Shown: positions 24,311-27,546 of the stretch, piece after piece
Layout of the letters: each line of letters opens with the position of its first letter
Numbering within the stretch: the first letter of the stretch is position 1
Notes under the pieces: generated by a model
What the model was told of the DNA's origin: nothing
What the model saw: the letters and a program-made list of their open reading frames with translations, nothing else
Databases searched by the model: none
Origin: Schmidtea polychroa
Lineage: Eukaryota
Direction of reading: 5' to 3'
DNA: 64,000 bases
Assembly (NCBI GenBank): GCA_044892525.1
Contig: CM097885.1
Span: 24,120,001 to 24,184,000 of the forward strand
Program-made: the position numbers and the translations under genes

Positions 24311-25129
24311 GGTAATAATATTGATAATTTAAGATTTTTTTTTTCGAGAAATGCTAAATATTTTACTCAATTACCTTTTGCTAAATATTATTTTAAATGA
24401 CTAAAAATGACAAAGTTAACCAATAAATTAGTCGCTCAAAATAGGAATATTAACGAAATATATTACATAAATGGAAATATTTCTCACTAAATTACCTAAG
24501 AATTTCTAACTAATATATATGTGCCTTAATTAATATACCGTTGCGACCAATACCTTTACGACAAATACCGATAGGGGGACAAAATATCTTTGCGGATAAA
24601 TATATATATATATATATAAAAGAACTTACAATATGCTATGATCTTTATTGATTAATTTGTTATATATATCAAGAGACTGATATTCATAAATTAACTAAAA
24701 TTACTCAAATATATTATATTACCTAAATGTTTTTACTTAATGATACATTAAATGATCTTGTTTTTTTAATATACCTATGAGTCAATTTCTAAAATAATCA
24801 TGTTATTTTATCATGCATTATTTGAATATAAATTTGCTGAATGTGAAATGAACAAGTTTCTTGTTAAATTTCGTAAGAATTTAATAATTAATGATATTTT
24901 GCAGAAAGGTATATAAAATCTCTATGAATGTTTTCGTCAAAATAAATTAGTTCCTAAAAAACTCACAAAGAATTGCCCTATAAATTTTATTCGAAACTAC
25001 CCCCAATTAAATGTTTTGTTGTTTTATTATTTTCACAAGTTTATTATTATTATTTTTTTAAATCGGCATTAATTGAGAAGGAGATTTCGATTTCCACTTG
25101 TCTCATTGGAAAACCTTATAAAATAGGAC

Positions 25130-25467
25130 TACACTAGAACAAAGATGTTATTATGATTAATATTATTAATATTATTGTTATTATTACTATTATTATTATT
25201 ATTTTCAAGATATTATTTATCAAAATAATATTATCAATATTAATATTATTATTATTATTATTACTATTATTATTATAAAGTGATGATTTCTTGGTAGGAG
25301 CATTTATTATTTAAAACAATCATTTAAGCGTTTTGGTGCAAATAATGTATTTAATGAAAAAGATTTTCGACTTGTAGTCCTTGTCAAACTCTTGGAATTT
25401 TCTTACCGAAAATACATTTCTATCTCTCTTTTATTTTCTTTTTCCTAATTCTCATTGAGACCAATTA
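25130..25467 (-). repeat. Inverted, diverged copy of the repeat at ~17970-18290
   Basis: Reverse complement gives TAATTGGTCTCAATGAGAATTAGGAAAAAG..AAATGTATTTTCGG..TTTTCATTAAATACATTATTT..TCTTTGTTCTAGTG. Confidence 0.8.
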
Positions 25468-25617
25468 TTATTATTATTATTATTATTATTATTATTATTA
25501 TTATTATTATTATTATTATTATTATTATTATTATTATTATTATTATTATTATTATTATTATTATTATTATTATTATTATTATTATTATTATCATTATTAT
25601 TATTATTATTATTATTA
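25464..25617 (+). repeat. (ATT)n microsatellite, about 50 units
   Basis: Read directly. Other (AAT/ATT)n tracts at ~8752, 18180, 19587, 30880. (TA)n tracts at ~15823, 21256, 23628, 28660 and their copies. Confidence 0.97.
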
Positions 25618-26076
25618 ATATACCGAATTTTATGTCTGGTACAAATATTGTGGATTAAATTTATTTTAAAAATTGAGACATCCGAACTCAGATATAAGAG
25701 AAGTAAAAATTAAAAAAATATAAAACAAAAATAAAATAATATTCAGAGTAAATATAAAAGTCAAATTAAAAATCTAAATTTATTATAATTTATAACAATT
25801 AAAATTTTGGTAAAATAGTTTTGACATTTTTGTGCAGAATCTAAGTAGAAATTATATGAATTAAAATATAACAATATAAACTTTCAATTATTTATCGTTA
25901 AAACAAATTAAATAAAATTAAATCTGTGGCTGTTTTTTATGGGAAGTAATGAAGAAGTAATTAAAATTTTGTATTCTTAGTATAAATAAATAAAATAACA
26001 GGAAACAAATAAAATAATAATCAATGTAAATATAAAAGTCAAATTATAAATCTAAATTTATTACATTTTATAAATA

Positions 26077-26982
26077 TTAATATTTTGGTAAAATAATTTT
26101 GACATTTTTGTGCAGAATCTTAGAAAAGGAGGCGATATTCGATTTTGACAATCCAATTGAATCTGCTAGCAATTTTGCGTCTACGTCGACATTTTTTAAG
26201 TCACAGACCAATTGAATGCAACATACCGCAATCAAAACGCTTCCTTTAATGCGAAATTCACTAATTTCACTTACATTTTTTACTGCTTCTTTTACAAGCT
26301 TTTCTATTTTGAAATCCGTCACGTCTAAATAATATAAAAATCTGCCAACGAGTAAATCTGGCTTGATTTCACGCGTTGGTCGTTTCAATGCAGTTTGGAT
26401 AAGTTTTAATAACTTTTTGAATTTCTTTTCATCAACCAGTGGACATTCGTTTAATATTTCTTTCGGCAGTCTCGGAACTTCATTGTCTACGCAAGCCAAA
26501 TATAGACATACGCAATTCAAGGTCGCTTTGTTTCGCTTGACACAGGCCTCTGATTTTGTAATTTCATGGAGTAGAGATACAGCTCGCGAATAAACATTTC
26601 TATCTACTTTTATTCTTTCACACAAATCTGCGATTTGTCGTTTCTGGGACGCCAATGACACTTCTTTGCTACTCTTAGTTGAAAGGAATTTAAATTTCGA
26701 ATTTCCATTTTCATCTAGAAATCTGAGGTTAAAACCTGTTTGAACGGCAGTCGATGTTTGTCCATCTGTTTCTGACGTTTCCACCTCTCCGACTCGACAA
26801 GCGTCATGTCCATCCGTTCCATCGGATGCGAATGTTCTCCATTCACTAGAAGGATCAATCGCCCGTTCAACTACAACCAGACCACAAGCGGAACATATCA
26901 TATCTCCAGTTCGACAATCAGTTATTAGAACTCTATTTGGATGATATTTACAATGAACCATTTTCATATTGTCATTATTCAT
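26077..26982 (-). CDS. TFIIB: Transcription initiation factor IIB-like protein, divergent, intronless (301 aa)
   Basis: Zinc ribbon CKYHP..D.RTGDMICSACGLVV, B-reader ID.SSEWRTF..D.CRVG, first cyclin repeat CLYLAC..EVPR..KEI, full-length second repeat. Open ATG-to-TAA frame, more GC-rich than its flanks. Confidence 0.93.
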   Translation of the reverse strand: MNNDNMKMVHCKYHPNRVLITDCRTGDMICSACGLVVVERAIDPSSEWRTFASDGTDGHDACRVGEVETSETDGQTSTAVQTGFNLRFLDENGNSKFKFLSTKSSKEVSLASQKRQIADLCERIKVDRNVYSRAVSLLHEITKSEACVKRNKATLNCVCLYLACVDNEVPRLPKEILNECPLVDEKKFKKLLKLIQTALKRPTREIKPDLLVGRFLYYLDVTDFKIEKLVKEAVKNVSEISEFRIKGSVLIAVCCIQLVCDLKNVDVDAKLLADSIGLSKSNIASFSKILHKNVKIILPKY

Positions 26983-27030
26983 TTTATTTGTTTAATAATT
27001 ATATAAATTAATTAATTAATTAAGCAAATT

Positions 27031-27065
27031 ATTTATATATTATTATTTATTTAATTCTTCATTGG
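27031..27065 (-). promoter_or_regulatory. Candidate TATA and CCAAT boxes of the TFIIB-like gene
   Basis: Minus strand CCAAT at 27065-27061 and TATAAA at 27037-27032, about 80 and 50 bp upstream of the ATG. Weak evidence because the background is so AT-rich. Confidence 0.3.
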
Positions 27066-27546
27066 TTAAAAGTAATTGTTAATCTAAAAAATGCTAAAAT
27101 ATTTTTATATTTAATGTTTTGTGTAAGGTTTTCCGATGAGACAAATGAAAATCGAAACCTCCCTCTCAATTAATGCACATCTGTAATCAGCAAATGTAAT
27201 AATTGTAATAATAAATTCGAAATTATTTCGCTGTTTTTTCAAATATGTAAAACTATTTTCTTCTGATTTAAATTTTATTTGAATTTGGACAGTTTCATAT
27301 TTGTGAAAAATAGGGCTGGAATAGCTGTACTGACCTCATGGAAATGTATTTTCCTTATAATTTCGTTTATAAAGTTAATTATCATAGGAATCTATGTAAT
27401 GTATTGACAAAAAAAGATTTTGAAAGTAATTAAATGATAAATTATTATATTTTTACATAAATTTATGTAATTAAATTTTCTTTAGTTTGTTTTATTTTTT
27501 TATTTATTATTTTAAAATTCTTTAATTAATCTTACTCGAGGAAAAT

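Follow-up and report, generated by a model that had tools for sequence, protein, structure and literature searches.

An intronless, amplified TFIIB paralogue of Schmidtea polychroa and its nesting in a CCDC66-family gene

A divergent, intronless gene for the general transcription factor TFIIB lies in a 64,000-nucleotide (nt) stretch of the genome of Schmidtea polychroa, taken from the 781-Mb, AT-rich assembly GCA_044892525.1 (contig CM097885.1, here C1:24120001-24184000; "the window" is this whole stretch, and C2 and C3 are two further contigs). The TFIIB-like frame runs from stop to stop at 26077-26991 on the minus strand; its first ATG, at 26982, gives an uninterrupted open reading frame (ORF) of 301 amino acids (aa) at 26077-26982, and an alternative ATG at 26967 gives 296 aa. 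The ORF passes the Pfam cut-offs for the TFIIB zinc ribbon (E 1.5e-10) and for the TFIIB repeat (E 8.1e-9). A first-pass annotation, made from the letters of the window, had called it the sole intact gene, and it is indeed the only complete one among the 11 stop-to-stop frames of at least 120 aa, with no systematic search made for small spliced exons. The other ten frames are pieces of hAT transposase (by Pfam), Penelope/GIY-YIG-like and gag-like pieces and satellite frames, the Penelope- and gag-like labels being assigned by eye and the GIY-YIG match (E 5.5e-4) falling below its cut-off. A Pfam scan of 32 of the 108 short frames in window positions 1-40200 gave nothing above cut-off.

The product is predicted to have the TFIIB fold, with ribbon, reader and two cyclin repeats. 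The zinc ribbon (PF08271, 40.9 bits against a cut-off of 29) keeps the ligands C15, H18, C34 and C37, and the B-reader keeps E51, W52, R53, F55 and R66-V67-G68 (human numbering). Identity to the canonical gene of the same genome is 58% in the ribbon, 53% in the reader, 28% in core 1 and 16% in core 2. Core 2 is 13-16% identical to canonical TFIIBs and 82% identical to its counterpart in the orthologue P0001, a pattern that suggests that it was altered once and then conserved. The first repeat is found by Pfam and the second by the structural model only (predicted local distance difference test, pLDDT, 75-94). Prediction from the single sequence reached a pLDDT of only 36.7, and a model from a 29-row alignment was used instead (pLDDT 76.6, ribbon and both cyclin repeats confident); its best fold matches are TFIIB in RNA polymerase II (Pol II) initiation complexes, with root-mean-square deviations of 2.0-2.9 Å to TFIIB/TFB cores. 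The best sequence match in the PDB is human TFIIB (E 1.6e-33, versus 8e-4 for Brf1), and the 301-aa protein has no BRF C-terminal extension.

Among the core residues that we take to face TBP or DNA, R154, R175, K189, K196, R217 and F218 are kept or conservatively replaced, and G153, R169, K200 and G247-P250 are changed. The protein might bind Pol II through ribbon and reader and no longer initiate, acting as an inhibitor or decoy of canonical TFIIB. G153, R169 and the G247-R248-S249-P250 motif are gone, as is the C-terminal tail, and core 2 has low identity to the canonical factor, which favours this reading. It appears improbable, since the predicted fold of each cyclin repeat is that of TFIIB, core 2 is as conserved between orthologues as the rest of the protein, and the basic residues 154, 189, 193 and 196 remain along with R217-F218.

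The gene is multi-copy. Searching the genome with the protein yielded 29 matches: 13 full-length intronless copies, four C3 pieces that are partial or broken, and 12 matches to exons of intron-bearing paralogues. Seven of the full-length copies are on C1 (23.85-24.19 Mb, ~100% identical) and six on C3 (38.2-39.1 Mb, 90-96%). The C1 copies are embedded in segmental duplications that are nested (three 7.9-kb units, one inverted copy and three ~40-kb units) and 95-99.7% alike over 3-18 kb; the coding sequence (CDS) is identical in five of the seven and there are three differences in the other two, and the decayed transposons around these copies have been amplified equally. The duplication structure described for the window by the first-pass annotation was borne out. 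The TFIIB cassette lies between 6.5-kb direct repeats, blocks of segmental duplication at 14687-21210 and 27553-33972 (91% over 6655 columns, 97-98% in pieces); positions 1-23784 and 40091-64000 are 99.1% identical, as expected of a 40-kb tandem unit, and the next copy predicted from that unit is present at C1:24186314-24187201, which is window position 66.3 kb. These copy numbers are those of the assembly and do not draw on contig depths of the DNA-like sequencing runs X2 and X3; run X2, which contains C1-type TFIIB pieces with 0-1 differences, may be the source sample.

Searches for a canonical locus and for all copies located a canonical TFIIB at C3:131.476 Mb (50% identical to a conventional animal TFIIB and 89% to P0049), so the window gene is not the only TFIIB of this genome. 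Four divergent intron-bearing types accompany the canonical gene, to which they are 40-45% identical: L062 at C3:131.50 Mb, L063 at C1:163.95 Mb, L064/L065 at C1:163.99 Mb (two copies) and L066 at C1:18.38 Mb. The canonical gene and these four have four introns in common at matching positions, and the window-type gene has none; because all four introns are lost, the intronless TFIIB is likely to have arisen by retroposition. Its location is unrelated to that of the parents, with introns of a CCDC66-family gene at C3:38.25-38.26 Mb on the one side and loci at C3:131.5, C1:164 and C1:18.4 Mb on the other. It is 32-35% identical to all five intron-bearing paralogues (32% to the canonical one) and 28% to a conventional animal TFIIB. 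In a phylogenetic tree the intronless gene forms a clade with P0001 (82% identity), P0002 (57%) and P0037 (43%) with support of 100/100, and this clade nests within the genome's own divergent paralogues (99/98), which are sister to the canonical gene (100/100). A mixture-model tree with two shortened paralogue rows gave the same grouping, and an enlarged tree with 13 added rows and without P0005, P0010, P0025, P0031, P0039 and P0042 gave the same nesting and placed P0053, P0054 and P0055 in the divergent group. Two other divergent paralogues have orthologues in P0051 and P0052, with identities of 82% and 87%, which makes the paralogue set older than at least one species split. Two near-identical loci at C1:8.376 and 8.422 Mb (L059, L060) are presumably BRF1-like, and a third, more distant one at C2:166.98 Mb (L067) BRF-like, labels that were assigned by motif.

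Derivation of the gene from a large DNA virus or a Polinton was weighed against this family relationship. The gene is intronless, its branch is long, a fragment of a Polinton-type polymerase (pPolB) lies 1.7 kb away, and the generic look-alikes include viral TFIIB clusters, at ranks 3, 7 and 27. That remnant, reported by the first-pass annotation near the cassette, is real: at 24027-24351 (minus strand) a broken Polinton/Maverick-type DNA polymerase fragment shares 89% identity across 90 codons with a longer ORF, which in turn matches a DNA polymerase family (E 1e-20). It belongs to a common dispersed repeat with 3222 candidate copies genome-wide (40 scored), the longer of which match a DNA polymerase family, with no Pfam or PDB match among these longer copies; the piece is incidental to TFIIB. 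A viral source is barely credible, as the gene nests in the TFIIB family of this genome (in trees that held no viral rows), 589 pattern matches in viral contigs yielded no confirmed relative, and the pPolB piece is a common repeat.

Inverted copies of a 53-bp motif bracket the gene at 25066-25118 and 27124-27176, and the gene had been proposed to be cargo of an amplified, transposon-derived unit. The pair exists as described, with 48 of 53 positions identical (BLASTN E ~1e-15) and no third copy in the window. Genome-wide, a 28-base pattern with at most 2 mismatches gave 17 matches and 0 in a reversed control; BLAST gave the same 17, and all of them lie at TFIIB loci (seven C1 pairs and three single upstream C3 copies). 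In the three C3 copies that retain the motif it is unpaired each time and the shared sequence extends beyond it on both sides. The arms fail as ends of an element, since homology to the C3 copies passes through the right arm to 27311-27544. No target-site duplication (TSD) was detected, the flush TSD length being 0 for three choices of ends and the best match within 10 nt being 2-4 bases. The outer 60-nt flanks of the arms are identical in all seven paired C1 copies, and these copies are therefore not independent insertions.

On C3 the 53-bp motif forms the coding portion of the final exon of a CCDC66-family gene. A contig of 2984 nt from run X1 matches window 27125-27417 and leaves the window at the inner edge of the right arm, and its unmatched end falls immediately downstream of the C3 TFIIB copies, on the opposite strand. 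Placed on C3 at 38.25 Mb, the contig has four joints, all of them CT..AC on the plus strand and hence GT-AG introns of a minus-strand gene; such spliced joints identify X1 as RNA. The last joint spans 1120 nt that contain the entire TFIIB ORF, and the five exons join into a single open frame of 262 aa that ends in the "arm" exon. A loose end in run X7 connects the host exons onward to an exon at C3:38262720, and an exon beyond it, single-copy (one match among 8 candidates), matches Pfam CCDC66 with 36.4 bits against a cut-off of 29.9. A TFIIB copy is nested antisense within the last intron of this CCDC66-family gene, and a second nested copy, L008, lies in an earlier intron. Nested intronic retrogenes can later spread by segmental duplication, and the present case is like them in having an intronless copy opposite to the strand of the host intron and later copies that take along host intron and exon pieces; it differs in its cargo, a general transcription factor, and no description of such a factor as a nested retrogene was found in the literature searched.

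Pack-type non-autonomous DNA transposons carry pieces of host genes, and a host-derived ORF between short inverted repeats resembles them. If TFIIB were the cargo of a non-autonomous DNA transposon bounded by 53-bp terminal inverted repeats, the arm pair that brackets the gene in all seven C1 copies would be accounted for. This model is very improbable, as the arm is a host exon, TSDs are lacking and the outer flanks are the same in all seven; moreover, the arms differ from one another at 5 of 53 positions while the copies are identical, no other element with these ends was found, and the C3 copies have one arm or none. The locus is likewise unlike Pack-type elements in lacking TSDs, independent insertions and any related autonomous element and in having repeats that are exon relics. 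The cargo-transposon model was rejected with high confidence on the host-exon arms, the absent TSD and the absence of independent insertions. What stands of the proposal is that the gene was most likely retroposed and that it was amplified; the transposon part falls, with arms that are host-exon relics, no TSD and a motif confined to TFIIB loci. The arms show how exon relics can pass for terminal inverted repeats.

By its sequence, this part of the window is a segmental duplicate of the last intron of the host together with a flanking exon, with 25979-27544 being 92% identical to C3:38254370-38252824. The right arm (27124-27186, plus strand) is the decayed last coding exon of the host (27127-27186, 19 codons and a stop), to which spliced RNA joins on C3. 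Its splice acceptor is mutated from AG to AA at 27125-27126, and there are five non-synonymous changes and one synonymous change relative to the C3 exon. Relic 3' untranslated region and flank of the host gene follow at 27187-27544 (plus strand; RNA contig match to 27417), and the second 6.5-kb direct repeat starts 9 bases past the end of this C3-derived block. The relic end and GT donor of the penultimate host exon are found at 25688-25704 (plus strand), matching the exon end used by the C3 RNA joint. This penultimate exon end is carried by the copies L009-L013 and L016 and by the window, which indicates spread as DNA from the copy in the last intron and not by new retroposition. Positions 25702-25845 are a partial tandem duplicate (86%) of 25979-26123, that is, of the TFIIB 3' end and the intron start, and similar duplicates occur in the C3 copies L010, L013 and L016.

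The left arm (25060-25118, minus strand) is a second, inverted relic of the last host exon, colinear with C3:38253194-38253252. It has four derived changes in common with the right arm, the dead acceptor included, plus changes of its own, and is present in all seven C1 copies and in none of the six full-length C3 copies. At 23393-23958 (plus strand) lies a copy of the C3 sequence found ~0.85-1.3 kb past the last exon of the host, in the orientation of the left arm. Since left arm and block together are colinear with C3:38251902-38253252, the arm can be understood as what remains of an inverted duplicate that insertions later reduced. The best match of window 23385-23625 outside C1 is C3:38251902 (87%, E 6e-72 versus at most 7e-54 for others, among the best 40 of 762 candidates). 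The same 23385-23625 segment also belongs to a repeat family (the 762 candidates) whose members occur 12-19 kb apart on small contigs as well as at the ends of C1 and C2 and which is perhaps a subtelomeric or rDNA-type unit.

Expression of the intronless family was observed in one run, as a C3-type transcript. A separate X1 contig of 876 nt covers the TFIIB ORF only, at a depth of 36.9, the unique parts of the neighbouring introns being at ~0-3. At 20 listed positions (25 differences overall) its alleles match five C3 copies at 17-18, L013 at 11 and the C1 copies at 0-1. The RNA check suggested by the first-pass annotation was thus positive at the level of the family, with a C3-type transcript, and none of C1 type, among the contigs of one run. 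No contig on the TFIIB ORF was present in runs X6 and X7, a result that carries no evidential weight. A CCAAT box lies at ~27069-27075 (minus strand), ~90 nt upstream of the first TFIIB ATG; it is exact in five of seven aligned upstream regions, one of which has otherwise lost upstream homology.

All 13 full-length copies are open over 296 codons, and comparison among them indicates that the intronless TFIIB is under purifying selection between clusters. Within the intronless family the copies are 95-100% alike. Comparison of C1 with five C3 copies gives a ratio of non-synonymous to synonymous substitution rates (dN/dS) of 0.20-0.31; the values are 0.88-0.90 for C1 and L013 and 0.22-0.78 within the group of five. 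When variants are pooled, 56 are non-synonymous (691 sites) and 35 synonymous (197 sites; p 3e-4), and the C1 sequence differs from the C3 majority by 13 non-synonymous and 12 synonymous changes (p 0.004), which fall in 23 codons. The CDS has 3.3-5.0% substitutions and no gaps, and the upstream DNA 7.9-8.2%. The suggestion of "selection or recent arrival" can accordingly be divided: selection holds, and "recent" applies to the C1 amplification (synonymous divergence, dS, 0-0.01) and not to the lineage, which is old (orthologues at 82, 57 and 43%). The intact copy L013 (C3:38243235-38244122) has a dN/dS of 0.5-0.9 against all others, with 30-35 non-synonymous changes, and may be under relaxed or positive selection.

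The functional gene could be the C3 family, and the seven C1 copies, that of the window included, could be silent and have been carried along when segments of a repeat-rich region were recently amplified. This alternative is unlikely but deserves serious weight: the transcript is of C3 type, the C1 copies are 0-3 bases apart, and their surroundings, decayed transposons included, were amplified equally. Opposed to it are the balance of synonymous and non-synonymous changes between C1 and C3, although these changes cannot be assigned to the C1 or the C3 branch without a DNA outgroup, and the C1 CDS, which is under half as diverged as its own upstream DNA, in which the CCAAT box is kept.

The explanation that we favour, with moderate confidence, is that the gene is an old TFIIB paralogue without introns, probably retroposed, which lies antisense in the final intron of a CCDC66-family gene, has been segmentally duplicated to at least 13 intact copies and likely serves as an alternative Pol II initiation factor in one cell type, probably in the male germ line. 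In the canonical factor, as described in passages of PMC4581349, the B-reader comes close to the active site of Pol II, and the two repeats lie on either side of TBP and recognize the flanking TFIIB recognition elements. The proposed course of events is that a retroposed TFIIB would have inserted antisense into the last intron of the host gene on C3, and that segmental duplication would have copied it, with pieces of host intron and exon, to the present number of intact copies. The kept zinc ribbon and B-reader would still dock on Pol II, while the rebuilt core might read another TBP-family partner or other promoter flanks. By analogy with known systems, the protein likely functions as a cell-type-specific paralogue of a basal factor, a fast-evolving duplicate beside a conserved canonical gene; this class is marked out by expression in the germ line, and the setting is probably the male germ line.

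Several points weigh against this explanation. The sole transcript is of C3 type and was obtained, as contigs without tissue labels, in a single run of a single study, and the Pfam CCDC66 exon is tied to the spliced 3' exons by position and strand, the reads linking only as far as C3:38262720. The C1 copies are so similar (dS 0-0.01) that their open frames are uninformative about selection after the amplification, L013 has a dN/dS of 0.9, four further copies are partial or broken, and the dN/dS tests ignore tree and gene conversion. The AlphaFold model depends on an alignment made up of canonical TFIIBs, and the long stem branch may draw the intronless gene to other fast paralogues. The intronless state is known from the copies of this genome alone, and a look by eye revealed no obvious poly(A) relic or TSD of the original insertion, the survival of which is not expected at such an age.

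At least six host TBP-family loci (L131-L140) are present, at C1:244.96, 41.96, 42.00 and 195.75 Mb and C2:182.64 and 132.29 Mb. At C2:182.64 and C1:195.75 Mb a single open frame of 212-215 aa contains both repeats, and these two loci appear to be divergent paralogues without introns. The divergent host TBP paralogues are candidate partners of the divergent TFIIBs. Matches to the C-terminal part of TFIIA-gamma were given by two of 19 candidates, L168 and L169 (C2:158.86 and 158.80 Mb), 51 kb apart.

The genome also holds 2998 first-look TBP candidates (150 scored, all above cut-off). The TBP-like ORFs examined are 160-190 aa long, stand head-to-head with an A32-type packaging ATPase and form two subfamilies ~72% alike (for example L142 at C1:89113043 and L146 at C2:33857601), and the elements that carry them would appear to be Polintons/Mavericks with a TBP of their own. 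TBP-like genes are labelled in figure legends on MELD viruses (PMC8502044, 10.1101/697771). The divergent TFIIB set might be tied to such a Polinton family, as a partner of its small TBP or as a host counter-measure. The abundance of these TBPs beside packaging ATPases and the concentration of TFIIB divergence in the TBP- and DNA-facing core speak for the tie, and parasitic nucleic acids are raised as a driver of such expansions in part of PMC4824122. We regard it as hardly probable, because the TFIIB copies lie in introns of a host gene with no physical link to Polintons and the divergent host TBP paralogues are a simpler partner. The C3 TFIIB copies are in or beside host exons among mixed repeats, with only scattered pPolB fragments and no set of Polinton core genes nearby. 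A broader and decidedly speculative proposal is that six types of TFIIB and no fewer than six TBP-family genes make up a parallel Pol II initiation system; in it the intronless TFIIB, with its rebuilt core facing TBP and DNA, would pair with a dedicated TBP paralogue and selected amplification (7 + 6 intact copies) would raise its dosage, possibly in conflict with the thousands of Polintons that bring a small TBP and need the host TFIIB.

The closest known parallel to the favoured explanation, an alternative initiation factor, is found in stalk-eyed flies (Diopsidae), which, according to PMC4824122, have five TFIIB genes per species, four of them fast-evolving duplicates, and duplicates of the basal machinery expressed in testes; the same paper presents TFIIB as single-copy across eukaryotes save for this exception. 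The two cases are alike in having one conserved TFIIB with several fast paralogues (five genes there, six types here) and TBP-family duplicates alongside. They differ in lineage, which is independent, in the paralogue described here that is intronless, nested antisense in CCDC66 and present in at least 13 intact copies, in the tissue, which is known in the flies and given here as germ line by analogy, and in the TFIIA-gamma matches, of which there are only two here. In plants an expansion of TFIIB-like genes (BRP1-5, TFIIB2) has reproductive roles for some members, as stated in sections of PMC7865254. This family is likewise composed of extra TFIIB-type factors beside the general one and is larger than the present set (PMC7865254, same sections), but it belongs to another kingdom and has another origin, and no sequence link to it was found. 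Compared with canonical TFIIB (GTF2B/Sua7), the gene encodes the same zinc ribbon, B-reader, linker and two cyclin repeats; unlike it, it lacks introns, has a rebuilt second repeat, is without ~17 C-terminal residues and is multi-copy.

No description of this TFIIB family in flatworms was found in the literature searched, and supplementary expression tables outside that search may list the gene. If the favoured explanation is true, this would be a second animal lineage, with a canonical, four intron-bearing divergent and an amplified intronless TFIIB, and animals would have arrived at alternative TFIIBs more than once. Naturally occurring variants in which the half that faces Pol II is preserved and the half that faces the promoter is altered would moreover offer a direct test of the role of TFIIB in promoter choice.

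Elsewhere in the window, a frameshifted hAT transposase with Pfam matches lies at 36642-37884 (minus strand), broken Penelope-like reverse transcriptase pieces, recognized by eye, at 2654-4529 and 38261-39838 (minus strand), and the GIY-YIG piece, whose match is below cut-off, at 35798-36115 (minus strand). A 1.8-kb inverted repeat, 98.5% alike, encloses ~6 kb at 5032-6822/12756-14548 and again at 45122-46912/52878-54730; it is made of 30-bp and shorter satellites, has no TSD at its BLAST ends, and is possibly a foldback-type element.

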